Positions 3,479-30,058 of a stretch of DNA of 32,015 nucleotides are shown here, piece after piece. How positions within the stretch are numbered: the first letter of the stretch is position 1; each line of letters opens with the position of its first letter. The stretch is from the IMG/VR virus record IMGVR_UViG_2706794662_000017; one strand, written 5' to 3'. This DNA is from a virus. Taxonomy: Duplodnaviria > Heunggongvirae > Uroviricota > Caudoviricetes. The translations under genes and the position numbers were made by a program. Below the pieces are notes generated by a model. The model had not been told where the DNA came from, did no database searches, and saw only the letters and a list, made by a program, of their open reading frames with translations.

Positions 3479-3755
3479 NNNNNNNNNNNNNNNNNNNNNN
3501 NNNNNNNNNNNNNNNNNNNNNNNNNNNNNNNNNNNNNNNNNNNNNNNNNNNNNNNNNNNNNNNNNNNNNNNNNNNNNNNNNNNNNNNNNNNNNNNNNNNN
3601 NNNNNNNNNNNNNNNNNNNNNNNNNNNNNNNNNNNNNNNNNNNNNNNNNNNNNNNNNNNNNNNNNNNNNNNNNNNNNNNNNNNNNNNNNNNNNNNNNNNN
3701 NNNNNNNNNNNNNNNNNNNNNNNNNNNNNNNNNNNNNNNNNNNNNNNNNNNNNNN
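3479..3755. other. Run of N (277 nt, masked or unsequenced)
   Basis: Literal N characters; hides the orf83 end and the start of A. Confidence 1.
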
Positions 3756-5830
3756 TCCGGCGCAATAAAAGCCCGGTGCACGGGTTTTATTTCCTCACAT
3801 CCACTTTTCAGCGTCGTTTATGGCCGCGCATTGAGCGTGTGAATCAGCGCCATGAAATGAACACCGACGCGTCGATGCTGTTTCTGGCTGAGCGTGACCA
3901 CTATGCGCGCCTGCCGGGAATGAATGACAAGGAGCTGAAAAAGTTTGCCGCCCGTATCTCATCGCAGCTTTTCATGATGTATGAGGAACTCAGCGATGCC
4001 TGGGTGGATGCGCATGGCGAAAAAGAATCGCTGTTTACGGATGAGGCGCAGGCTCACCTCTATGGTCATGTTGCTGGCGCTGCACGTGCTTTCAATATTT
4101 CCCCTCTCTACTGGAAAAAATACCGTAAAGGACAGATGACCACGAGGCAGGCATATTCTGCCATTGCCCGTCTGTTTAACGATGAGTGGTGGATTAGTCA
4201 GCTTAAAGGCCAGCGTATGCGCTGGCATGAGGCGTTACTGATTGCTGTCGGGGAGGTCAATAAAGACCGTTCTCCTTATGCCAGTAAACATGCCATTCGT
4301 GATGTGCGTGCACGCCGCCAGGCAAATCTGGAATTTCTTAAATCGTGTGATCTCGAAAACAGGGAAACAGGCGAGCGCATCGACCTTATCAGTAAGGTGA
4401 TGGGCAGTATTTCTAATCCTGAAATTCGCCGGATGGAGCTGATGAACACCATTGCCGGTATTGAGCGTTACGCCGCCGCAGAAGGTGATGTGGGGATGTT
4501 TATCACGCTGACCGCGCCGTCAAAGTATCACCCGACACGTCAGGTTGGAAAAGGCGAAAGTAAAACCGTCCAGCTAAATCACGGCTGGAACGATGAGGCA
4601 TTTAATCCAAAGGATGCGCAGCGTTATCTCTGCCGTATCTGGAGCCTGATGCGCACGGCATTCAAGGATAATGATTTACAGGTCTACGGTTTGCGAGTCG
4701 TCGAGCCACACCACGACGGAACGCCGCACTGGCATATGATGCTTTTTTGTAATCCACGCCAGCGTAACCAGATTATCGAAATCATGCGTCGCTACGCGCT
4801 CAAAGAGGATGGCGACGAAAGAGGAGCTGCGCGAAACCGTTTTCAGGCAAAACATCTTAATCGGGGCGGTGCTGCGGGGTATATCGCGAAATACATCTCA
4901 AAAAATATCGACGGCTATGCACTGGATGGGCAGCTCGATAACGATAGCGGCAGACCGCTGAAAGATACTGCCGCGGCTGTTACCGCATGGGCGTCAACGT
5001 GGCGCATTCCGCAATTTAAAACGGTTGGCCTGCCGACAATGGGGGCTTACCGTGAACTACGCAAATTGCCTCGCGGCGTCAGCATTGCTGATGAGTTTGA
5101 CGAGCGCGTCGAGGCTGCACGCGCCGCCGCAGACAGTGGTGATTTTGCGCTGTATATCAGCGCGCAGGGTGGGGCAAATGTCCCGCGCGATTGTCAGACT
5201 GTCAGGGTCGCCCGTAGTCCGTCGGATGAAGTTAACGAGTACGAGGAAGAAGTCGAGAGAGTGGTCGGCATTTACGCGCCGCATCTCGGCGCGCGTCATA
5301 TTCATATCACCAGAACGACGGACTGGCGCATTGTTCCGAAAGTGCCGGTCGTTGAGCCTTTGACTTTAAAAAGCGGCATCGCCGCGCCTCGGAGTCCTGT
5401 CAATAACTGTGGAAAGCTCACTGGTGGTGATACTTCGTTACCGGCTCCCACACCTTCTGAGCACGCCGCAGCAGTGCTTAATCTGGTAGATGACGGTGTT
5501 ATCGAATGGAATGACCCGGAGGTTGTGAGGGCGCTCAGAGGTGCATTAAAACACGGACTGAGAAGACCAAACCGTCAGCAAAGAAACGGAAGCCCGTTAA
5601 AACCGCATGAAATAGCGCCATCGGCCAGACTGACCCGGTCGGAACGAATGCAAATTACCCGTATCCGCGTTGACCTTGCTCAGAACGGTATCAGGCCGCA
5701 GCGATGGGAGCTTGAGGTGCTGGCGCGTGGGGCAACCGTAAATTATGACGGGAAAAAATTCACTTACCCGCTCGCTGATGAGTGGTCGGGATTCTCAACA
5801 GTATTAGAGTCAAACTCAGTGAAGCGTTAA
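3545..5830 (+). CDS. A: Replication initiation protein A (P2 gpA-like rolling-circle nickase); start lies inside the masked region
   Basis: Readable portion 3756..5830 resembles P2 gpA as I recall it; HUH-type motif (TPHWHMM) and downstream tyrosine motif (YIAKYISK); start estimated assuming a P2-length protein and an exact-length N-run. Confidence 0.85.
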   Translation, partial: XXXXXXXXXXXXXXXXXXXXXXXXXXXXXXXXXXXXXXXXXXXXXXXXXXXXXXXXXXXXXXXXXXXXXXXRRNKSPVHGFYFLTSTFQRRLWPRIERVNQRHEMNTDASMLFLAERDHYARLPGMNDKELKKFAARISSQLFMMYEELSDAWVDAHGEKESLFTDEAQAHLYGHVAGAARAFNISPLYWKKYRKGQMTTRQAYSAIARLFNDEWWISQLKGQRMRWHEALLIAVGEVNKDRSPYASKHAIRDVRARRQANLEFLKSCDLENRETGERIDLISKVMGSISNPEIRRMELMNTIAGIERYAAAEGDVGMFITLTAPSKYHPTRQVGKGESKTVQLNHGWNDEAFNPKDAQRYLCRIWSLMRTAFKDNDLQVYGLRVVEPHHDGTPHWHMMLFCNPRQRNQIIEIMRRYALKEDGDERGAARNRFQAKHLNRGGAAGYIAKYISKNIDGYALDGQLDNDSGRPLKDTAAAVTAWASTWRIPQFKTVGLPTMGAYRELRKLPRGVSIADEFDERVEAARAAADSGDFALYISAQGGANVPRDCQTVRVARSPSDEVNEYEEEVERVVGIYAPHLGARHIHITRTTDWRIVPKVPVVEPLTLKSGIAAPRSPVNNCGKLTGGDTSLPAPTPSEHAAAVLNLVDDGVIEWNDPEVVRALRGALKHGLRRPNRQQRNGSPLKPHEIAPSARLTRSERMQITRIRVDLAQNGIRPQRWELEVLARGATVNYDGKKFTYPLADEWSGFSTVLESNSVKR

Positions 5831-5916
5831 CTCAATAAATATGAGTTTATAAGTTAGGCCTCGAGATTTTGTAGAAAGGGATGTATACTGAGTATCGTAT
5901 AGATTTGGAGTGAGTG

Positions 5917-6939
5917 ATGACTGTAAAGGTGATAGACCTTTTTTGTGGTGCTGGCGGATTAACTCATGGTTTGCAGCTTGCGGGGCTTGATGTCGTTGCA
6001 GGCATTGACCTTGAGGGGGAATGTAGGTTTCCCTATGAAAGAAACAATAAATCTAAGTTTATTGAGCAAGATATCGCTAAAGTAACAAAAGAGGAACTGC
6101 TGAGGCTTTATGGTGATGCGTCTGTAAAAGTATTGGCAGGATGCGCACCTTGCCAACCTTTTTCAAAATATACTCAAGGAAAAGATAAGGCTGATGATAA
6201 AAAATGGCCTCTTCTTTATGAGTTCGAACGTTTAATTCGCGAAGTATCTCCAGAAATCGTAACAATGGAGAACGTTCCTGATGTAACTAAACATAAAGTT
6301 TATAATGATTTTTATAATTCATTGTTAAAGTTGGGCTATTATGTTTGGGCGTCTAAGATTGATTGTGTCGAATATGGAATCCCACAAAACCGTTCCCGTC
6401 ATGTATTGTTGGCCTCAAAATTGGGGGCGATTGAGTTAGTAAAACGTGACGATGTTATTTTGAAAACAGTTAGAGATGCAATAGGAAATCTTCCTCCATT
6501 AGAAGATGGCCAAACAGATCCAAATGATATATTACATAGAGCCAGTAAATTAAATCCGATTAATAAAAAAAGAATTATACACTCTGTTCCTGGTGGTACA
6601 TGGAAGGACTGGCCGAAAGAGTTGGTTGCCGCTTGTCATATGAAATCCAGCGGTAAAGGGTATGCTAGTGTATATGGGCGCATGTCTTGGGATAAGCCAA
6701 GTCCAACAATTACAACTCTTTGTTATGGTTTCGGGAATGGGCGTTTTGGACATCCAGAACAGCATAGAGCGATTTCTCTTAGAGAGGCTGCTTTATTGCA
6801 AACTTTCCCGATGGATTATATTTTTGTAGAAGACAAAAACAAGTTTGTTATAAGAAGTATTGGGAAAATGATAGGTAATGCTGTTCCTGTGGAACTAGGA
6901 AAAGCAATTGGGCAATCAATCAAGAACCATTTAGAATGA
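5917..6939 (+). CDS. DNA (cytosine-5)-methyltransferase, complete, no adjacent restriction endonuclease recognised
   Basis: Motif I DLFCGAGG, motif IV PCQPFS (catalytic Cys), motif VI ENV, motif VIII QNRSR, motif X GNAVPV; ATG 5917 with GGAG 6 nt upstream; AT-rich relative to the phage backbone. Confidence 0.85.
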   Translation: MTVKVIDLFCGAGGLTHGLQLAGLDVVAGIDLEGECRFPYERNNKSKFIEQDIAKVTKEELLRLYGDASVKVLAGCAPCQPFSKYTQGKDKADDKKWPLLYEFERLIREVSPEIVTMENVPDVTKHKVYNDFYNSLLKLGYYVWASKIDCVEYGIPQNRSRHVLLASKLGAIELVKRDDVILKTVRDAIGNLPPLEDGQTDPNDILHRASKLNPINKKRIIHSVPGGTWKDWPKELVAACHMKSSGKGYASVYGRMSWDKPSPTITTLCYGFGNGRFGHPEQHRAISLREAALLQTFPMDYIFVEDKNKFVIRSIGKMIGNAVPVELGKAIGQSIKNHLE

Positions 6940-6945
6940 TAAAAT

Positions 6946-6962
6946 GGCCTGCTTTACAGGCC
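6946..6962. terminator. Hairpin GGCCTG-CTTTA-CAGGCC between convergent genes (possible bidirectional terminator)
   Basis: Perfect 6-bp stem with 5-nt loop, flanked by A/T-rich sequence, lying between the methyltransferase stop (6939) and the minus-strand gene stop (6969). Confidence 0.35.
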
Positions 6963-6968
6963 TTATAA

Positions 6969-7649
6969 CTATTGTTCTAAATATTCATTATTATTTATAT
7001 AGTGCTCTATATTATTCACGATAGCATCAAGATAGGCGATTACTTCTAATGAAATATTCTCTAAGTCCTGATATGAAACATTTTTTCCAATCTCAGCAAA
7101 TGATACATTGCCATGAGATAAATCATTACGATGTTGTTTAACAGTGGCTAATTTTTCACCATGTTTAGTGTGAGTGTAATCGGAATGTGTAGAAAAACCA
7201 TATATTTTCGATTTTTCTTTGATTTCCTCTCTATCAATATTTCCTGAGAATATTTTCTTTTTGTTGAACGTGCCATAAGATATACCGCAAGATATACCTT
7301 TGGTAAGGTGATTAACTAAACTTTCAACATTTACAGATTCATTTTTTAATCTTTTTAATATTTCTGACCTGAGATTTTTCCTGAGTTTGTCAAATTCTAC
7401 GTTTCTATCATAAATAGTCTCATGAATAAGGCAGATAGCTTCTCTCATTGTTGATTCAATGAGGTTATATAACAGTATATATACTGCTCCCTTTAGAGTT
7501 TTTCGTGATTGAGCAGTAATGGAGAACTTATGTTCTTTATCATCAGCTGATATCAGTTCTGCACCGGCATACTCAATAAATTTCAAAAGATCCAAATAGG
7601 CCAAGATCTCTCCTGACCTTTCGTCAAAATCCTCACGAAAACGATCCAT
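6969..7649 (-). CDS. Hypothetical 226-aa protein with C-terminal Rx4H motif (putative HEPN-like nuclease); second gene of a two-gene operon
   Basis: ATG 7647-7649 with AGAGGA RBS 5 nt upstream, located inside the 3' end of the upstream gene; R-N-D-L-S-H at residues 174-179 (nt 7113-7130); function is inferred from the motif only. Confidence 0.55.
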   Translation of the reverse strand: MDRFREDFDERSGEILAYLDLLKFIEYAGAELISADDKEHKFSITAQSRKTLKGAVYILLYNLIESTMREAICLIHETIYDRNVEFDKLRKNLRSEILKRLKNESVNVESLVNHLTKGISCGISYGTFNKKKIFSGNIDREEIKEKSKIYGFSTHSDYTHTKHGEKLATVKQHRNDLSHGNVSFAEIGKNVSYQDLENISLEVIAYLDAIVNNIEHYINNNEYLEQ

Positions 7650-7650
7650 G

Positions 7651-8793
7651 TTAATCCTCTAATAATTTATCCCGAACATATTCAATTCGTTCAATTACCT
7701 TCACGCGACTATTAGCTCCGTCGGAAGTGGTCAATCGTTTGAATTCTTCTGAGCTTAGCCAATCTAAGTTCTTGGGAACAAGGTCAGGGACTTCACGTAA
7801 TGCAAGTGCTGCGCCAACAGCGAGAGATTCGAATCTAACTCGAGGTGTAGATTTTGCAGTAATAGTTTTCTTGAATCCTGCTGGGAAATAGTTTTCAACA
7901 AAAGATAGAACATTAGCAAACTCTTGTTTCATTGAGTTTTGTTTAGTTTCGTCTATATCTCGATTTTCTGACATATAGTCATTTAGAAAATCCCGTACGG
8001 AATGATCAAAGTTCTTGTACTTATCTACGTAGGCAAAGAATCTTAATGTAAATTCTAACCGTTCATCTCGTTTTTCTTTAGTCTGAGATAAAGGTGCTAA
8101 TTCTTTAAATTTAGGTATTGTTGAGCATGGCTTAATAACCTGTGTATATAAATTTGTTGAACCAAGTTCTGATCCTTTACGGACTTCCATATCTTTCAAT
8201 ATATCGCTGCCAGAGTTAATACGCTCAAAAAGATCTCTACGGGTTTCTTCATTGCATTTAGAACTCAATTCTATAACGCGGACAGGAATTCTCATGAAAC
8301 GACGTTGACGTGATAATGGTAAATCTTGGAATTTGAAACCATTAAGGACGTCTAAAGATTTCAGGTCTTGTAAAACTAATTCATTTTGGATAAAAGCGTG
8401 TATAGTCCTAACTCGTTGTGAGCCATCAACAATCTCAATTCGCCCATCTAAATCGGGATCTTCGGAGAGAACATCTGCTATAAATATATATGGTATAGGA
8501 AAACCCAAAATCAAAGACTCTATCAATTTTGATTGTCTTTTTTCACTCCAAACAAAATCCCTTTGATAATCAGGAACAAAGAGTTCGTTAGTATCATCCT
8601 CTAATCCGTTATGATACTTATTAACTAATAACTCAACGGTAAATTCTTTGGTCTCAAAATCCACATCCTTTTGCTCAGCACGAATTTGCTCTTCAGCGTT
8701 TTGCTTTATCACCTCTAGCTGAGCAAGCAACTCTGCTCTTTTCTTGGCATTATCTTCATTTTCTAGTTGAGATTTTAAATCAATAATGTCCAT
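7651..8793 (-). CDS. DUF262 (ParB/Srx-like, GmrSD N-terminal-type) domain protein; first gene of a two-gene operon
   Basis: Signature motifs FVPDYQRDFVW, GFPIPYIF and IVDGSQRVRTI (DGQQR variant); preferred start ATG 8791-8793 with AGGGA RBS 7 nt upstream (the ORF track extends to a TTG at 8811); stop is 1 nt from the downstream gene start; no DUF1524/HNH-like C-terminal domain recognised. Confidence 0.75.
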   Translation of the reverse strand: MDIIDLKSQLENEDNAKKRAELLAQLEVIKQNAEEQIRAEQKDVDFETKEFTVELLVNKYHNGLEDDTNELFVPDYQRDFVWSEKRQSKLIESLILGFPIPYIFIADVLSEDPDLDGRIEIVDGSQRVRTIHAFIQNELVLQDLKSLDVLNGFKFQDLPLSRQRRFMRIPVRVIELSSKCNEETRRDLFERINSGSDILKDMEVRKGSELGSTNLYTQVIKPCSTIPKFKELAPLSQTKEKRDERLEFTLRFFAYVDKYKNFDHSVRDFLNDYMSENRDIDETKQNSMKQEFANVLSFVENYFPAGFKKTITAKSTPRVRFESLAVGAALALREVPDLVPKNLDWLSSEEFKRLTTSDGANSRVKVIERIEYVRDKLLED

Positions 8794-8978
8794 GTCTAGT
8801 TCCCTTAACAAGTGTTAAAAATTGAAGCGGATAGCATACCGCATAGATCATGAAAAATGCCATCATGTGCATGGATTTGCATGCGTCAGAAGTCGCTTTT
8901 ATTGTTAGTTATCACTAGCGCTGGCGTGCTCTTGGAGTGTTCATGCAACTGCATTAAAACCGCCCCATGAAGCGGGCG

Positions 8979-8997
8979 GGCGAGGCGGGGAAAGCAC
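8979..8997. other. cos: cos site, 19-nt cohesive-end sequence GGCGAGGCGGGGAAAGCAC
   Basis: Exact match to the P2 cohesive-end 19-mer as I recall it, located just upstream of Q where P2 cos lies. Confidence 0.6.
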
Positions 8998-9164: not shown

Positions 9165-10199
9165 TCAGCCGTTGTCAGTGTCCAGTGAGTAGTTTTTAAA
9201 GCGGATGACCTCCTGACCGAGCCAGCCGTTTATCTCGCGGATCCTGTCCTGTAACGGGATAAGCTCATTGCGGACAAAGACCTTTGCCACTTTCTCAATA
9301 TCACCCAGCGACCCGACGTTCTCCGGCTTGCCCCCCATCAACTGAAAGGGGATGCGGTGCGCGTCCAGCAGGTCAGCGGCGCTGGCTTTTTTGATATTAA
9401 AAAAATCGTCCTTCGTTGCCACTTCACTGAGCGGGATAATTTTAATGCCGTCGGCTTTCCCCTGTGGGGCATAGAGAAACAGATTTTTAAAGTTATTGCG
9501 GCCTTTCGACTTAACCATGTTTTCGCGAAGCATTTCGATATCGTTGCGATCCTGCACGGCATCGGTGACGTACATGATGTATCCGGCATGTGCGCCGTTT
9601 TCGTAATACTTGCGGCGGAACAGCGTGGCCGACTCATTCAGCCATGCAGAGTTAAGGGCGCTGAGATATTCCGGCAGGCCGTACAGCTCCTGATTAATAT
9701 CAGGCTCCAGCAGGTGAAACACGGAGCCGGGCGCGAAGGCTGTCGGCTCGTTGAAGGACGGCACCCACCAGTAAACATCCTCCTCCACGCCACGACGGGT
9801 ATATTTGGCCGGTGAGGTTTCCAGTCTGATGACCTTACCGGTGGTGCTGTAACGCTTTTCCAGAAACGCATTACCGAACACCAGAAAATCCAGCACAAAA
9901 CGGCTGAAATCCTGCTGGGAAAGCCACGGGTGCGGGATAAACGTTGAAGCCAGAATATTACGTTTGACGTAAATCGGTGAGCTGTGATGCACGGCAGCAC
10001 GCAGGCTTTTTGCCAGACCGGTAAAGCTGACCGGCGGCTCATACCATCTGCCGTTACTGATGCACTCGACGTAATCCAGAATGTCACGGCGGTCGAGTAC
10101 CGGCACCGGCTCACCAAAGGTGAATGCTTCCATTTTCGGGGCGCTGGCGGTGATTGTTTTTGCCGCAGGTCGCGGTGTTTTCCCTTTTTTCTTGCTCAT
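9165..10199 (-). CDS. Q: Portal protein (P2 gpQ)
   Basis: 344 aa, near-identical to P2 gpQ as I recall it (MSKKKGKTP...SLDTDNG). Confidence 0.95.
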   Translation of the reverse strand: MSKKKGKTPRPAAKTITASAPKMEAFTFGEPVPVLDRRDILDYVECISNGRWYEPPVSFTGLAKSLRAAVHHSSPIYVKRNILASTFIPHPWLSQQDFSRFVLDFLVFGNAFLEKRYSTTGKVIRLETSPAKYTRRGVEEDVYWWVPSFNEPTAFAPGSVFHLLEPDINQELYGLPEYLSALNSAWLNESATLFRRKYYENGAHAGYIMYVTDAVQDRNDIEMLRENMVKSKGRNNFKNLFLYAPQGKADGIKIIPLSEVATKDDFFNIKKASAADLLDAHRIPFQLMGGKPENVGSLGDIEKVAKVFVRNELIPLQDRIREINGWLGQEVIRFKNYSLDTDNG

Positions 10200-17899: not shown

Positions 17900-18422
17900 G
17901 TTTAAGCGTTTTGAAGACAGGCTGACCGGACTTATTGAGTCGCTGTCACCGTCAGGGCGTCGGCGACTGAGCGCCGAACTGGCGAAACGTCTGCGTCAGA
18001 GTCAGCAGCGTCGGGTGATGGCACAGAAAGCCCCGGACGGCACACCCTACGCACCACGCCAGCAGCAGAGCGCCAGAAAAAAGACCGGTCGCGTTAAGCG
18101 AAAAATGTTTGCGAAACTTATCACCAGTCGTTTTTTGCATATCCNNNNNNNNNNNNNNNNNNNNNNNNNNNNNNNNNNNNNNNNNNNNNNNNNNNNNNNN
18201 NNNNNNNNNNNNNNNNNNNNNNNNNNNNNNNNNNNNNNNNNNNNNNNNNNNNNNNNNNNNNNNNNNNNNNNNNNNNNNNNNNNNNNNNNNNNNNNNNNNN
18301 NNNNNNNNNNNNNNNNNNNNNNNNNNNNNNNNNNNNNNNNNNNNNNNNNNNNNNNNNNNNNNNNNNNNNNNNNNNNNNNNNNNNNNNNNNNNNNNNACCC
18401 GGCGGCATCCTTCCCGTTATGA
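17892..18422 (+). CDS. S: Tail completion protein S (P2 gpS); 3' part inside masked region
   Basis: N-terminal 84 aa readable and gpS-like; reading frame continues through the N-run to a stop overlapping the V start (ATGA); the true end could lie inside the N-run. Confidence 0.7.
   Translation: MNEFKRFEDRLTGLIESLSPSGRRRLSAELAKRLRQSQQRRVMAQKAPDGTPYAPRQQQSARKKTGRVKRKMFAKLITSRFLHIXXXXXXXXXXXXXXXXXXXXXXXXXXXXXXXXXXXXXXXXXXXXXXXXXXXXXXXXXXXXXXXXXXXXXXXXXXXXXXXXXXXXXPAASFPL
18145..18396. other. Run of N (252 nt, masked or unsequenced)
   Basis: Literal N characters inside S and upstream of V. Confidence 1.
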
Positions 18423-23808: not shown

Positions 23809-25227
23809 CTACATCGGGCTCTTATATGGGGAATGAGAGTTTTTGAAACGCGGTTCTTCATGCTTCGGACTGTAAATTCTTGCATGATTATCTATCACAA
23901 CTTTACTTCCAAGAATATCTCGAGCTTCTCCTAACGACCACACAGTAGAAAGATCATTAGTCAAATTTCGATAGAGAGCACGAAACCCCTTGGGTTTTTT
24001 AAGATCATATAAGAAATCAGGAACTTTAACTTTAAAATTAAAGGTCGGTAGTTTCGGAAGGGAATTAATAGCCGCAACAGTATTGTATACATGTACAAGC
24101 TTAGTTACAGGTACACCTTGTCTAGTCTTGAGCCCATACTTAGTTCGAATATAATCTGATTCTTTCGATACTTCAGTAAGCAATGCTCTTACTGACTTAT
24201 TAGCTTGAGGCAATTCATTTTCATCAAACAAGCGCTTTATTTCTCGCATTTTCTCACGGGCCCTTACAAATTCGTTGTTGTCCCTTATGTTATAAGCAGC
24301 TTCAACAATACAACTTGGATCACCAGTTTCTTTTGCGAGCCATGCCGAAAATAAAGGAAGCGAAGTTGCTGTTGCTACAGCTTTACCACCAGAATGAATA
24401 TCAATGAGATCATGACTTAACGAAGTGGAAAAGTTTTCTACAATATGTTTAGCATAGTCAAAACCATACTGACAGTTTTGGCTTAAATATGTCTGTTGAT
24501 ACGCCTGACGTAATGGATATAAAAAAGTATCTGCTTGAAGGTACTTAGCTGTGAGAGAATAAAATACTGCCCGATTAGCCAGCCATACAAGCGAAGCCAC
24601 GAATGCTTTGATTGCATCTGATGCTTCACCAGCAGATGTGCCATCCCCCCATTTTGCTCCGGGAACTTTGTACCCCTTGCGAATAGGGTTGCCAAATCGA
24701 TCGAGAAGTTCAACATCGCCATTTGTTCTATTACCAGACTCAGCAGCATCACGCAGTTCTGAAAAAATGGCAGCAGCAATGTTACCATATTTTTCAAACT
24801 CCTTACCTCCATCAGATAAGTTCTTCAGTGTTAGATGATAAACACTTGAACTAATGTCCCATGTACATATGATATGTGTCTGAAGAAGTTCAATTAGTTT
24901 TTTAAAATCGTCATTAACAAATGTTCCACCACGAATTTTAGGTTTCAATGCATCAGATATTTTTTTTGCTTCACTTTCAATTTCATCCAACCCATATTGT
25001 GCTTTATCAAGAAATAATATCTCTCTGAAACTTGAAATCCTACTCCCACGGTACTCTGGAATATAATCATCAACCGCGATAACGTGATCATAGAACAAAA
25101 TAGACTGTATATAGTTCTCAAATGCTATTATGTCTGTATCTACTGAGTCCTTCGATCTTGTTTTTACTTTCCCCTCGATTCTTTGGACTGCAGTTAGAGT
25201 TGAATTATCAATCAGTGCGTATGTCAT
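23809..25227 (-). CDS. Hypothetical 472-aa protein, AT-rich cargo gene at the P2 Z/fun variable locus; function unknown
   Basis: Long uninterrupted minus-strand ORF antisense to both flanking late operons; ATG 25225-25227 with AAGGAA RBS 5 nt upstream; no P2 structural counterpart; no catalytic motif recognised with confidence. Confidence 0.7.
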   Translation of the reverse strand: MTYALIDNSTLTAVQRIEGKVKTRSKDSVDTDIIAFENYIQSILFYDHVIAVDDYIPEYRGSRISSFREILFLDKAQYGLDEIESEAKKISDALKPKIRGGTFVNDDFKKLIELLQTHIICTWDISSSVYHLTLKNLSDGGKEFEKYGNIAAAIFSELRDAAESGNRTNGDVELLDRFGNPIRKGYKVPGAKWGDGTSAGEASDAIKAFVASLVWLANRAVFYSLTAKYLQADTFLYPLRQAYQQTYLSQNCQYGFDYAKHIVENFSTSLSHDLIDIHSGGKAVATATSLPLFSAWLAKETGDPSCIVEAAYNIRDNNEFVRAREKMREIKRLFDENELPQANKSVRALLTEVSKESDYIRTKYGLKTRQGVPVTKLVHVYNTVAAINSLPKLPTFNFKVKVPDFLYDLKKPKGFRALYRNLTNDLSTVWSLGEARDILGSKVVIDNHARIYSPKHEEPRFKNSHSPYKSPM

Positions 25228-27843: not shown

Positions 27844-30058
27844 CAATGTAAAATTACAGGTATTGCTCAGGGCTGTTGACCAGGCGTCCCGCCCGTTTAA
27901 ATCCATCCGCAGAGCGAGTAAGTTGCTGTCGGGGGATATCCGGGAAACACAAAAATCACTGCGCGAGCTGAACGGTCACGCATCCCGTATTGAGGGATTC
28001 CGCAAGACCAGTGCACAGCTCGCCGTGACTGGTCATGCACTTGAAAAGGCACGGCAGGAGGCCGAAGCCCTTGCCACACAGTTTAAAAACACCGAACGCC
28101 CGACCCGTGCTCAGGCGAAAGTGCTGGAATCCGCAAAGCGTGCGGCGGAGGACTTACAGGCGAAATATAACCGCCTGACAGATTCCGTTAAACGCCAGCA
28201 GCGGGAACTGGCCGCTGTGGGAATTAATACCCGCAATCTTGCACATGATGAGCAGGGACTGAAAAACCGTATCAGTGAAACCACCGCCCAGCTTAACCGG
28301 CAGCGTGACGCGCTGGCGCGTGTCAGTGCGCAACAGGCAAAACTTAACGCAGTCAAACAGCGTTATCAGGCCGGAAAGGAACTGGCCGGAAATATGGCCT
28401 CAGTGGGCGCTGCCGGTGTGGGGATTGCTGCTGCGGGAACGATAGCCGGAGTTAAGCTGCTGATGCCAGGTTATGAGTTTGCGCAGAAAAACTCAGAATT
28501 GCAGGCTGTGCTCGGTGTGGCAAAAGACTCCGCCGAAATGGCTGCACTCCGCAAGCAGGCGCGCCAGCTCGGTGACAACACCGCCGCCTCAGCGGATGAT
28601 GCGGNNNNNNNNNNNNNNNNNNNNNNNNNNNNNNNNNNNNNNNNNNNNNNNNNNNNNNNNNNNNNNNNNNNNNNNNNNNNNNNNNNNNNNNNNNNNNNNN
28701 NNNNNNNNNNNNNNNNNNNNNNNNNNNNNNNNNNNNNNNNNNNNNNNNNNNNNNNNNNNNNNNNNNNNNNNNNNNNNNNNNNNNNNNNNNNNNNNNNNNN
28801 NNNNNNNNNNNNNNNNNNNNNNNNNNNNNNNNNNNNNNNNNNNNNNNNNNNNNNAGAAATGCAGGCCAGCTTTGAGAAAAACCGGCTCGGTACTGCCCAG
28901 CAGGCCGAATACATGAAAACCATTTTCGGGGAGGAGGCCAGCTCAGCCGCCGCTGTGCTGATGACTGCCGCGTCAACCGGAAAGCTGGACAAACTGACCG
29001 CTGCGTTTAAAGCCTCAGACGGGAAGACCGCAGAGCTGGTAAATATCATGCAGGACAACCTCGGCGGTGACTTTAAGGAGTTTCAGTCCGCTTATGAGGC
29101 GGTGGGGACAGACCTGTTTGACCAGCAGGAAGGCGCGCTACGTAAGCTCACGCAGACGGCCACAAAGTATGTGTTAAAACTCGACGGCTGGGTACAGAAA
29201 AACAAATCACTGGCGTCAACCATTGGCCTCATTGCCGGTGGCGCGCTGGCGCTGACTGGCATCATCGGTGCAATTGGTCTTGTAGCCTGGCCGGTTATCA
29301 CCGGCATCAATGCCATCATCGCGGCAGCAGGCGCAATGGGGGCAATCTTCACGACGGTTGGTAGTGCCGTTATGACGGCCATCGGGGCGATTAGCTGGCC
29401 GGTTGTGGCTGTGGTGGCCGCCATTGTCGCCGGGGCGTTGCTTATCCGTAAATACTGGGAGCCTGTCAGCGCATTCTTTGGCGGTGTGGTTGAAGGGCTG
29501 AAAGCGGCATTTGCGCCGGTGGGGGAGCTGTTCACGCCACTGAAACCGGTGTTTGACTGGCTGGGCGAAAAGTTACAGGCTGCGTGGCAGTGGTTTAAAA
29601 ACCTGATTGCCCCGGTCAAAGCCACCCAGGACACCCTGAACCGTTGCCGTGACACGGGCGTCATGTTCGGGCAGGCACTGGCTGACGCGCTGATGCTGCC
29701 GCTTAATGCGTTCAACAAATTGCGCAGCGGCATTGACTGGGTACTGGAAAAGCTCGGGGTCATCAACAAAGAGTCAGACACACTTGACCAGACCGCCGCC
29801 AGAACTCATGCCGCCACGTATGGCACCGGTGGTTATATTCCGGCGACCAGCTCTTATGCAGGCTATCAGGCTTATCAGCCGGTCACGGCACCGGCTGGCC
29901 GCTCTTATGTGGACCAGAGTAAAAACGAATATCACATCAGCCTGACGGGTGGTACTGCACCGGGGACACAGCTTGACCGCCAGTTACAGGATGCGCTCGA
30001 AAAATACGAGCGGGATAAACGTGCGCGCGCCCGTGCCAGCATGATGCATGACGGTTAA
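27836..30058 (+). CDS. T: Tail tape measure protein (P2 gpT); internal 250-nt masked region
   Basis: 740-codon ORF; coiled-coil-rich N-terminus and Gly/Ala-rich hydrophobic central region; frame maintained across the N-run. Confidence 0.9.
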   Translation: MSNNVKLQVLLRAVDQASRPFKSIRRASKLLSGDIRETQKSLRELNGHASRIEGFRKTSAQLAVTGHALEKARQEAEALATQFKNTERPTRAQAKVLESAKRAAEDLQAKYNRLTDSVKRQQRELAAVGINTRNLAHDEQGLKNRISETTAQLNRQRDALARVSAQQAKLNAVKQRYQAGKELAGNMASVGAAGVGIAAAGTIAGVKLLMPGYEFAQKNSELQAVLGVAKDSAEMAALRKQARQLGDNTAASADDAXXXXXXXXXXXXXXXXXXXXXXXXXXXXXXXXXXXXXXXXXXXXXXXXXXXXXXXXXXXXXXXXXXXXXXXXXXXXXXXXXXXXEMQASFEKNRLGTAQQAEYMKTIFGEEASSAAAVLMTAASTGKLDKLTAAFKASDGKTAELVNIMQDNLGGDFKEFQSAYEAVGTDLFDQQEGALRKLTQTATKYVLKLDGWVQKNKSLASTIGLIAGGALALTGIIGAIGLVAWPVITGINAIIAAAGAMGAIFTTVGSAVMTAIGAISWPVVAVVAAIVAGALLIRKYWEPVSAFFGGVVEGLKAAFAPVGELFTPLKPVFDWLGEKLQAAWQWFKNLIAPVKATQDTLNRCRDTGVMFGQALADALMLPLNAFNKLRSGIDWVLEKLGVINKESDTLDQTAARTHAATYGTGGYIPATSSYAGYQAYQPVTAPAGRSYVDQSKNEYHISLTGGTAPGTQLDRQLQDALEKYERDKRARARASMMHDG
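28605..28854. other. Run of N (250 nt, masked or unsequenced)
   Basis: Literal N characters inside T. Confidence 1.

Follow-up and report, generated by a model that had tools for sequence, protein, structure and literature searches.

Comparative genomics first pointed to operons in which a MAE_28990 gene is found together with a ParB gene and a DNA methylase gene, and the HEPN protein was proposed to be the RNase arm of restriction-modification (R-M) systems, with its partner termed a 'ParB nuclease' (Anantharaman et al. 2013; PMC3710099). Within the literature searched this is the only paper that mentions MAE_28990. PD-T4-2 from E. coli ECOR65, listed as 'DUF262, HEPN', is an anti-T4 system that has been validated both natively and in K-12, and its second protein PD-T4-2B is assigned by HHpred to PF18735 (97.8%) and PF18737 (96.9%). 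The same study reported PD-lambda-5, a 'ParB/HEPN, methyltransferase' system called a compacted RM+Abi, and four of its systems sit in the P2 hotspot considered here, which is dedicated to defence cargo (Vassallo et al. 2022). The main text of Rousset 2022, which deals with the P2 and P4 hotspots, makes no mention of DUF262.

In the characterised DUF262 enzymes the DUF262 domain serves as an NTPase or sensor and DUF1524 carries out the cleavage. SspE is a DUF262 protein that is coupled to a host-installed DNA modification, and DARNA is a HEPN tRNase that is activated by DNA. According to papers from 2025 and 2026, the DUF262 systems that are devoid of DUF1524 (PD-T4-2, Menshen and Dazbog) are still mechanistically uncharacterised. 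Judged by its gene order and protein families, the cassette described below is of a known kind, namely the triad recognised by comparative genomics in 2013, and it resembles PD-T4-2.

The island between P2 gene A and cos

The window is the whole stretch of viral DNA that was analysed, 32,015 nucleotides in length. P2 gene A ends at position 5830 and the portal gene (9165-10199) follows after the 19-mer at 8979-8997, which we take to be the P2 cos sequence. This places the island between A and cos, as the preliminary description had located it. The features of the cos-proximal part are as follows.

8979..8997, plus strand: P2 cos site GGCGAGGCGGGGAAAGCAC, an exact 19-nt match with 0 expected by chance, which bounds the hotspot
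8794..8978, minus strand: untranslated leader of the DUF262-HEPN operon with its presumed promoter region, a putative role
7651..8793, minus strand: DUF262 gene, 380 aa from the ATG at 8793, predicted DNA sensor/regulator
7656..7660, minus strand: ribosome-binding site GAGGA of the HEPN gene, read from the sequence inside the last DUF262 codons
6969..7649, minus strand: HEPN gene of the MAE_28990 family, 226 aa with an ATG start, predicted RNase effector

The G+C content is 0.317 for the HEPN gene, 0.358 for the DUF262 gene and 0.360 for the whole island versus 0.53-0.57 in the flanking genes A, Q and P, which speaks for the horizontal acquisition suggested earlier. The estimate of about one-third G+C for the pair holds, but 55-70% overstates the flanks, as no 500-nt stretch of the window exceeds 0.62. 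In E. coli at least four diverged alleles of the cassette compete for this P2 hotspot, and the three that were seen besides the version in the window all carry the methyltransferase gene.

The DUF262 ORF (7651-8811, minus strand) comprises 386 aa if translated from a TTG start and 380 aa from the ATG at 8793, which is preceded by AAGGGA; the 380-aa form is the one chosen by PGAP in E. coli. Its TAA stop codon occupies 7653-7651, which leaves 1 nt before the HEPN ATG at 7649. Coordinates and sequence thus agree with the first account of two minus-strand genes of 380 and 226 aa, the second with its ribosome-binding site inside the first. Across related genomes, for which neighbourhoods were counted in 80 loci and motifs and junctions in 83, a DUF262 gene of the same orientation directly precedes the HEPN gene in all 80, and the junction measures between -8 and +6 nt in 73 of 83. 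This obligatory adjacency and tight spacing are consistent with an operon under translational coupling, as had been proposed. Neither ORF is a product of chance, to judge from the strong full-length family matches of both and their hundreds of homologues. No ORF in the leader reaches 50 aa, and no promoter is claimed because a scan upstream of the operon returned 8 sites where 11.4 are expected, none of them above chance.

The DUF262 and HEPN proteins

The motifs by which the two proteins are recognised map to the following positions.

8548..8565, minus strand: QRDFVW, DUF262 motif I, with Q77, R78 and W82 invariant in the DUF262 alignments
8413..8427, minus strand: DGSQR, DUF262 motif II, NTP-binding, with D123, G124, Q126 and R127 invariant
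7113..7130, minus strand: RNDLSH (R174-x4-H179), the HEPN catalytic motif, near-invariant in the alignment

GmrSD_N/DUF262 (PF03235) is the sole Pfam domain of the 380-aa protein (E 7.7e-26, residues 58-206). Pfam recognises no DNase domain in it and matches DUF1524/HNH in neither of the two proteins even at E<=1, in line with the earlier reading of a DUF262 protein that lacks the fused DUF1524 nuclease. Besides the QRDFVW and DGSQR signatures already noted the protein carries FERINSG, and the NTPase motifs QRxxxW, DGxQR and FxxxN are conserved, with QRxxxW and DGxQR each carried by 77 of 83 loci. NCBIfam scans returned no match for either protein, and since sequence-profile searches of the PDB gave marginal matches alone for the DUF262 protein (E about 0.006) and none for the HEPN protein, a fold comparison was needed. 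The predicted structure of the DUF262 protein is of moderate confidence (pLDDT 77, pTM 0.50; low at the motif loops) and its best fold matches are BrxU and SspE. The protein is an NTPase of ParB/GmrS type with an NsnA-like architecture, having a coiled coil at the N-terminus and a helical domain of DNA-binding type at the C-terminus. NsnA is also its best PADLOC model (1.6e-54; residues 25-374 aligned to positions 23-376 of a 385-position profile), and PD-T4-2_A matches at E 2.4e-35 (residues 73-372 aligned to positions 55-356 of 363), both over the full length.

The HEPN protein matches PF18737 (HEPN_MAE_28990) over its full length (102.2 bits, gathering cutoff 26.8, E 5.8e-29; residues 5-223 aligned to positions 6-211 of the 211 in the profile), and PF18735 as well (8e-9). 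This match and the HEPN fold bear out the identity first assigned from the R-x4-H motif, which lies exactly where it had been placed. In the HEPN alignment R174, N175, D176, L177, H179 and G180 hardly vary, and R-N-x-L-[AS]-H is found in 80 of 83 loci. The protein matches no PADLOC model at E<=1, including PD-T4-2_B, and likewise four other DUF262-linked HEPN partners have no PADLOC match.

The top fold matches of the HEPN protein are HEPN toxins of toxin-antitoxin pairs, and the order of an upstream regulator and a downstream HEPN gene, in overlapping genes, is like that of the MNT-HEPN modules. The pair could accordingly be an addiction module, with HEPN as the toxin and the DUF262 protein as its antitoxin, that stabilises the island or the prophage and for which phage defence is not primary; some standalone DUF262-HEPN pairs do lie between housekeeping genes. 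Such a role is very unlikely to be the main one here, as the invariant DUF262 motifs suggest an enzyme that senses and not a simple antidote, native protection against T4 is known from the relative PD-T4-2 and the location is a hotspot for defence cargo. The minimal nucleotidyltransferase partner of the HEPN-MNT modules is absent, the upstream gene being DUF262. Toxin-antitoxin function and abortive infection need not exclude each other.

A C5-methyltransferase as the third gene

The remaining part of the island contains a gene on the opposite strand that converges on the pair.

5914..6939, plus strand: C5-cytosine DNA methyltransferase, 341 aa, convergent with the HEPN gene across a 29-nt spacer
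6946..6962, no strand: G+C-rich hairpin GGCCTGTAAAGCAGGCC followed by a T-rich tail, candidate shared terminator

The methyltransferase matches Pfam PF00145 over its full length (E 3.4e-58) and TIGR00675 too, and the motifs FCGAGG, PCQ (with the catalytic Cys80), ENV, QNRSR and GNAV can be discerned. The terminator, called by consensus match only, lies in the convergent spacer between the methyltransferase and HEPN genes. Of the 80 loci, 35 have a full methylase orthologue next to the pair, 32 of them in the convergent orientation seen in the window, and in E. coli genomes with the pair it is present in 9 of 9, JNE120442 and CFSAN064036 among them; 40 of the 80 loci are without a methylase although their flanks extend at least 1.2 kb on both sides. 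The methylase-linked state spans gammaproteobacterial, cyanobacterial, acidobacterial and Bacteroidales genomes, is paraphyletic/ancestral in a neighbour-joining tree, and is characterised by a gap of about 18 nt or by convergent gene overlap. Pairwise distances correlate with r=0.96 between the DUF262 protein and the methyltransferase and 0.88 between the DUF262 and HEPN proteins. On this comparative evidence the methylase is ancestrally linked to the pair and co-evolves with it, and what had been described as a two-gene system is inherited as a unit of three genes. Residues 200-300 of the methyltransferase, the target-recognition region, are the best conserved part of the protein (0.75-0.92), and therefore the cassette probably marks one fixed sequence; the alignment to M.HaeIII, the nearest solved enzyme, covers the catalytic core only.

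This linkage bears on a type IV-like reading, in which the DUF262 protein, as in GmrSD and BrxU, detects hmC and glucosyl-hmC, the hypermodified cytosines of T-even-type phages, and then triggers HEPN, while the methylase is independent cargo, for instance an anti-restriction function for P2 DNA. The fold matches to BrxU and SspE would suit it, as would the selection of PD-T4-2 on T4, systems so selected generally protecting against T2 and T6 as well, and the sufficiency of two genes for PD-T4-2 together with the many loci that have the pair without a methylase. We nevertheless regard it as unlikely, since the methylase linkage is ancestral, taxonomically wide, co-evolving with DUF262 and physically close, since a conserved target-recognition region is unexpected for unrelated cargo and since the methylase is retained by every diverged version of the cassette at the P2 hotspot of E. 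coli.

The methylase has also been lost. One derived cyanobacterial clade has lost it and kept the pair, and in two loci (L016 and L017) it has decayed next to an intact pair. The decay in these loci, the 40 of 80 loci without a methylase and the function of PD-T4-2 as two genes in K-12 indicate that self-tolerance cannot depend strictly on methylation, barring an unlinked methylase. In phage P24B2 the methylase is frameshifted, which was considered as a proof of dispensability and rejected as weak: E. coli 2023CK-01509 carries this cassette with the methylase intact, and the frameshift may be peculiar to the phage record or stem from a sequencing error.

These losses also weigh on a type II-like R-M system following the 2013 model, in which the DUF262/ParB-like protein cuts unmethylated sites and HEPN is a second-line suicidal RNase for when restriction fails. 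The two-tier logic and the 'ParB nuclease' were proposed in PMC3710099, the PADLOC REase_II model PDLC03418 has a weak match to the DUF262 protein (E 9e-6), the DefenseFinder-type label 'RM_Type_II__Type_II_REases' is attached to a DUF262 homologue from a Vibrio phage record, and the linked methylase has its conserved target-recognition region. Such a system is quite unlikely, given that repeated loss or decay of the methylase next to an intact pair would be lethal with a true restriction enzyme, that Pfam detects no DNase domain and that cleavage by characterised DUF262 proteins resides in DUF1524.

A proposed function and its implications

We think it rather likely that the three genes form an anti-phage cassette carried as P2 hotspot cargo, in which a DUF262 NTPase controls a HEPN RNase and the methylase marks self. 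The DUF262 and HEPN proteins would form a complex in which the RNase is kept inactive by DUF262, and the latter would read the state of the DNA through NTP binding or hydrolysis. Resident DNA would be identified by the cassette's own 5mC mark, whereas incoming DNA without the mark, or with a different cytosine chemistry, would switch DUF262 and free the HEPN dimer, which would then cut RNA (tRNA or mRNA), stop translation and abort the infection. This amounts to the logic of restriction-modification with an RNA-cutting effector, of the kind of PD-T4-2 and PD-lambda-5; what is known of the protein families is the basis for the RNA substrate, for the formation of a complex and for how the regulation runs. 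The methylase would act as a modulator and not as an absolute antidote, because lineages without it keep the pair.

A stronger version, that the cassette represents a distinct R-M class in which a ParB/DUF262 NTPase reads a 5-methylcytosine self-mark at one conserved target and HEPN answers unmarked or foreign DNA by cutting RNA and not DNA, is possible but doubtful; the methylase-free clade would then reflect a later switch to another trigger. If true, an abortive RNase would be controlled by epigenetic discrimination of self from non-self.

As a DUF262 system devoid of DUF1524, the cassette is compact and native to E. coli; its predicted sensor, its effector and its candidate self-marking enzyme are encoded by three separate small genes and can thus easily be separated genetically. 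If the methylase gates the RNase, epigenetic marking is linked to abortive infection; if it does not, the cassette simply adds to the hotspot cargo of the PD-T4-2-like kind. Present annotation pipelines will probably fail to label it correctly, given that PADLOC has no model for the HEPN protein and that in one phage record a DUF262 homologue is labelled as a type II REase.

Comparison with known systems

Like GmrSD, BrxU and SspE the cassette has an N-terminal DUF262 NTPase fold with the QRxxxW, DGxQR and FxxxN motifs. Those enzymes carry a DUF1524/HNH DNase, whereas the effector in the window is a separate HEPN protein and the predicted target is therefore RNA and not DNA. As in type II R-M systems a cognate methyltransferase is present (PF00145, with all catalytic motifs). 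Menshen (NsnABC) shares the NsnA-type ParB-DUF262 protein with a helical C-terminal domain, and an RNase effector is predicted in both systems, but Menshen employs the ABC ATPase NsnB and the inPIN effector NsnC, while in the window HEPN is directly in the effector position. Neither NsnB nor NsnC is found in the island, where the only genes beside DUF262 are those for HEPN and the methyltransferase, which do not match these models.

PD-T4-2 and PD-lambda-5, which lie on the WGS contigs QOYX01000002 and QOWS01000001, were compared by way of PADLOC HMMs and the authors' HHpred tables. PD-lambda-5 is likewise a compact prophage module that combines a ParB-superfamily domain, HEPN and a methyltransferase, and its logic is the one proposed here. 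It differs in having a fused ParBc-HEPN protein and a D12/Dam-type N6-adenine methylase, as opposed to separate proteins, DUF262 and a C5 enzyme in the window, and no sequence relationship was detected between the two.

PD-T4-2 shares the two-gene operon of DUF262 and HEPN, with HEPN downstream and of the same HEPN_RiboL-PSP/HEPN_MAE_28990 clade, and is also mobile-element cargo in E. coli. PD-T4-2B is shorter, at about 165 aa (both PD-T4-2 ORFs span 1540 bp) compared with 226 aa in the window, the PD-T4-2_B model does not match the window HEPN, the DUF262 protein scores better on NsnA than on PD-T4-2_A, and the cloned PD-T4-2 region has no methylase whereas the island has a C5-methyltransferase. 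Phage records were also searched for a true PD-T4-2; those of Klebsiella phage ST16-OXA48phi5.4 and Vibrio phage PE004 contain other DUF262 and HEPN pairs, and neither HEPN partner matches the PD-T4-2_B model.

The MAE_28990 operon class shows no structural difference from the cassette: both have the same HEPN family with its Rx4H motif, a ParB-superfamily (DUF262) gene and an adjacent methylase, an exact triad of which the window copy resides in a P2 prophage hotspot. The partner described as a ParB nuclease in 2013 would today rather be seen as an NTPase or sensor. The 2013 arrangement is present here because the C5-methyltransferase converges on the pair, and with a full-length HEPN_MAE_28990 protein in that arrangement the preliminary description of an undescribed system cannot be upheld. 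The triad was predicted in 2013, PD-T4-2 has been validated as 'DUF262, HEPN' and matches the pair at the level of architecture and family, and PGAP has names for both proteins.

A three-gene island at the A-cos hotspot

Gene A ends at 5830, the 19-mer at 8979-8997 exactly matches P2 cos and the portal gene follows, which places the island in the A-cos (tin/old) hotspot, as the preliminary description had proposed. It comprises:

5914-6939, plus strand: C5-cytosine methyltransferase gene, convergent with the HEPN gene
6969-7649, minus strand: HEPN gene, a 226-aa ORF
7651-8811, minus strand: DUF262 gene, an ORF encoding 380 aa counted from the ATG at 8793

The ATG at 8793 is also the start chosen by PGAP in E. 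coli genomes. A single nucleotide separates the DUF262 stop codon (7653-7651) from the HEPN ATG (7649), and the GAGGA ribosome-binding site of the HEPN gene lies inside the final codons of the DUF262 gene; this arrangement is as first described. The convergent methylase and HEPN genes are separated by a 29-nt spacer that contains a hairpin. The low G+C content noted earlier is borne out (36% for the island; HEPN 31.7%, DUF262 35.8%, methylase 38.8%), but the flanks, put at up to 70%, were overstated, with 53-57% in the A, Q and P genes. Three N-masked runs in the window, at 3479-3755 (277 nt, within gene A), 18145-18396 (252 nt) and 28605-28854 (250 nt), account for apparent drops in its G+C profile.

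The 380-aa protein carries the DUF262 signatures QRDFVW, DGSQR and FERINSG and a DUF262/GmrSD_N domain (E 7.7e-26). Pfam detected no DUF1524 domain in it, in agreement with the preliminary description. The PADLOC models NsnA of Menshen (1.6e-54) and PD-T4-2_A (2.4e-35) match over its whole length, and it therefore has an NsnA-type architecture of a ParB-DUF262 domain and a helical C-terminal domain. BrxU and SspE are the best fold matches of its structure model, which is of moderate confidence (pLDDT 77).

The 226-aa protein, earlier called HEPN-like from its motif, matches Pfam HEPN_MAE_28990 over its full length (102 bits, cutoff 26.8) and HEPN_RiboL-PSP more weakly, and its AlphaFold model, built with 26 homologues, is confident (pLDDT 90.4, pTM 0.86). 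The RNDLSH motif lies exactly where claimed, at nt 7113-7130, and R174, N175, D176, L177, H179 and G180 hardly vary across a family alignment in which identity falls to ~35%. In a large protein library the family forms ~1,735 clusters at 50% identity, nearly all of standalone proteins of 210-250 aa.

Linkage of the methylase to the pair

A HEPN-family profile found relatives in 474 species-representative genomes, from which the best 80 loci were analysed. The DUF262 gene is immediately upstream of HEPN on the same strand in all 80, and in 73 of 83 loci the HEPN start lies -8 to +6 nt from the DUF262 stop, a tight spacing that is consistent with translational coupling. An orthologue of the window methylase (50-86% identical) adjoins the pair in 35 of the 80 loci, in 32 of these convergently and downstream of HEPN with a median gap of ~18 nt. 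One locus retains only an 83-aa methylase remnant, four are not classifiable for methylase presence and in 40, each with 1.2 kb or more of flank to either side, the methylase is absent. Methylase-free pairs stand alone among housekeeping genes (aconitase B, ClpB, CobN, BrkB).

In a neighbour-joining tree of concatenated DUF262 and HEPN the methylase-linked loci include the phage outgroups and gammaproteobacterial, acidobacterial, Bacteroidales and one cyanobacterial lineage, and the methylase-free pairs comprise one derived cyanobacterial clade and sporadic losses; the tree shows methylase linkage to be the ancestral state. Pairwise distances of DUF262 correlate with those of the methylase at r = 0.96 and with those of HEPN, the fastest-evolving member (mean distance 0.51 versus 0.37 for DUF262 and 0.35 for the methylase), at 0.88. 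Methylase, DUF262 and HEPN are inherited together. The linkage, the tree and the distance correlation argue for a unit of three genes rather than two, and the boundary drawn in the preliminary description was one gene short. Beside this joint inheritance, it appears unlikely that the pair is a type IV-like sensor of hypermodified DNA to which the methylase is unrelated, even with half of the loci methylase-free.

The methylase has a full set of catalytic motifs. Its most conserved part across phyla is the variable target-recognition region (residues ~200-300), from which the cassette would probably mark one fixed sequence. Such an enzyme would also suit a true type II restriction-modification system in which the DUF262 protein cuts the DNA, a reading we consider quite unlikely.

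In two sister cyanobacterial loci inside the methylase-linked clade, L016 (8716-8964) and L017 (Dolichospermum and Aphanizomenon), the methylase is an 83-aa remnant or gone and DUF262 and HEPN are full-length, a natural example of tolerated methylase loss. Six methylase-free cyanobacterial loci (L039, L062, L068, L072, L076, L078; five Microcoleus, one Oscillatoriales) align to DUF262 only over residues ~30-197 and lack the C-terminal helical domain, as only ~136 nt are left before the HEPN start. A ~2 kb insertion apparently interrupts the DUF262 gene of L082 (4813-5076 and 7111-7974). Such short or broken genes could have decayed once the methylase had been lost, or they could represent a more compact architecture.

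Occurrence in E. coli and phages

Of 5,426 complete E. coli genomes, 9 carry the pair in the version seen in the window, always with the methylase and always within a P2-like prophage, with the replication endonuclease gene on one side and the portal gene on the other. The same hotspot holds three further diverged three-gene versions, in strain GN04592 (~89% DNA identity), in strain 5735 and in 2023CK-01509 together with phage P24B2. The window and P24B2 share 96% DNA identity in gene A and ~70% in the methylase gene, and no DNA similarity in the DUF262/HEPN pair. Across the P24B2/2023CK-01509 lineage, identity to the window is 72-76% for the methylase and, at the protein level, 45% for DUF262 and 30% for HEPN. 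These values could point to unequal rates or to an exchange of modules at the hotspot. The methylase is frameshifted near residue 227 in the Peduovirus P24B2 record (L083, 2021-3041) and intact (348 aa) in the equivalent prophage of 2023CK-01509 (L088, 2433-3479). In E. coli F95 (L089, 2812-7190) a related C5-methylase occupies the same place in the P2 hotspot, but IS2 and a 609-aa 'ATP-binding protein' follow it where the HEPN-DUF262 pair would be. Either another methylase-linked system or a cassette that was disrupted may be present there.

Another cassette version is found in Moraxella phages Mcat24-32. More distant pairs, in which DUF262 accompanies a RiboL-PSP-type HEPN but no methylase is present, are carried by a Klebsiella P2-like phage (ST16-OXA48phi5.4; L085, 2363-4266), among tail genes and apparently at hotspot #2, and by Vibrio phages, including 10N.286.55.C7_PE004 (L086, 2309-4580). 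The DUF262 gene of the latter record is labelled 'RM_Type_II__Type_II_REases', and automated pipelines may thus misname such proteins restriction enzymes.

The window's own hotspot #2 (P2 Z/fun), between the tail-fibre assembly and tail sheath genes, is a second low-GC patch (36-39%) with a 472-aa ORF (23809-25227, minus strand). PGAP calls it a 'hypothetical protein', and searches of Pfam and PADLOC gave no match and only PHROG 13435 (unknown function) was found. It occurs in 7 of 5,426 E. coli genomes, and none of the six carriers listed has the hotspot-1 cassette. We regard this ORF as an orphan defence candidate, possibly of greater novelty than the DUF262-HEPN cassette.

Proposed mechanism and relation to known systems

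The DUF262 NTPase motifs, the HEPN Rx4H motif and the C5-methylase are all intact in the window, and the earlier reading, a defence candidate with separate sensor and effector at a known hotspot, is judged correct. The DUF262 domains of GmrSD, BrxU and SspE combine NTP binding and hydrolysis with sensing of DNA modification status, and HEPN domains with an RNxxxH motif are dimeric RNases that are off until triggered. Partly from this family knowledge, the most likely mechanism is a DNA-state-gated RNase: DUF262 and HEPN would form a complex holding the predicted RNase, and contact of DUF262 with DNA that is missing the cassette's 5mC mark or bears foreign cytosine chemistry would license this RNase. 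Cutting of RNA would then arrest translation and abort the infection. What counts as self would be defined by the methylase. The methylase cannot be an absolute antidote, given the large methylase-free clade, the decay in L016/L017 with intact partners and the tolerance of PD-T4-2 alone in K-12. A plain toxin-antitoxin module is a very improbable description of the cassette.

The identity of the locus with GmrSD was rejected owing to the lack of DUF1524, and with Menshen as neither NsnB nor NsnC is present. It is not PD-T4-2 by the PADLOC definition either: the PD-T4-2_B model has no match, PD-T4-2B has only ~165 aa compared to 226 aa, and the cloned PD-T4-2, unlike the window cassette, included no methylase. 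PD-T4-2 ('DUF262, HEPN') came from ECOR65, where its deletion from the native strain restored T4 plaquing, and the cloned pair protected K-12; HHpred assigned PD-T4-2B to HEPN_RiboL-PSP (97.8%) and HEPN_MAE_28990 (96.9%) (Vassallo et al. 2022). At the family level the window pair is therefore related to PD-T4-2. Papers of 2023, 2025 and 2026 call PD-T4-2 uncharacterised or list it without a mechanism, and our literature search found no study on the methylase-linked DUF262-HEPN subfamily. The remaining interest is mechanistic, namely whether an epigenetic mark gates an RNase.

HEPN RNases linked to restriction-modification systems were proposed to serve, like PrrC, as a second and suicidal line of defence (Anantharaman et al. 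2013; PMC3710099). All four features of the MAE_28990 class are present in the window cassette. The term 'undescribed' in the preliminary description thus does not hold: the cassette is a new member of a class predicted in 2013 and is related to a system validated in 2022.
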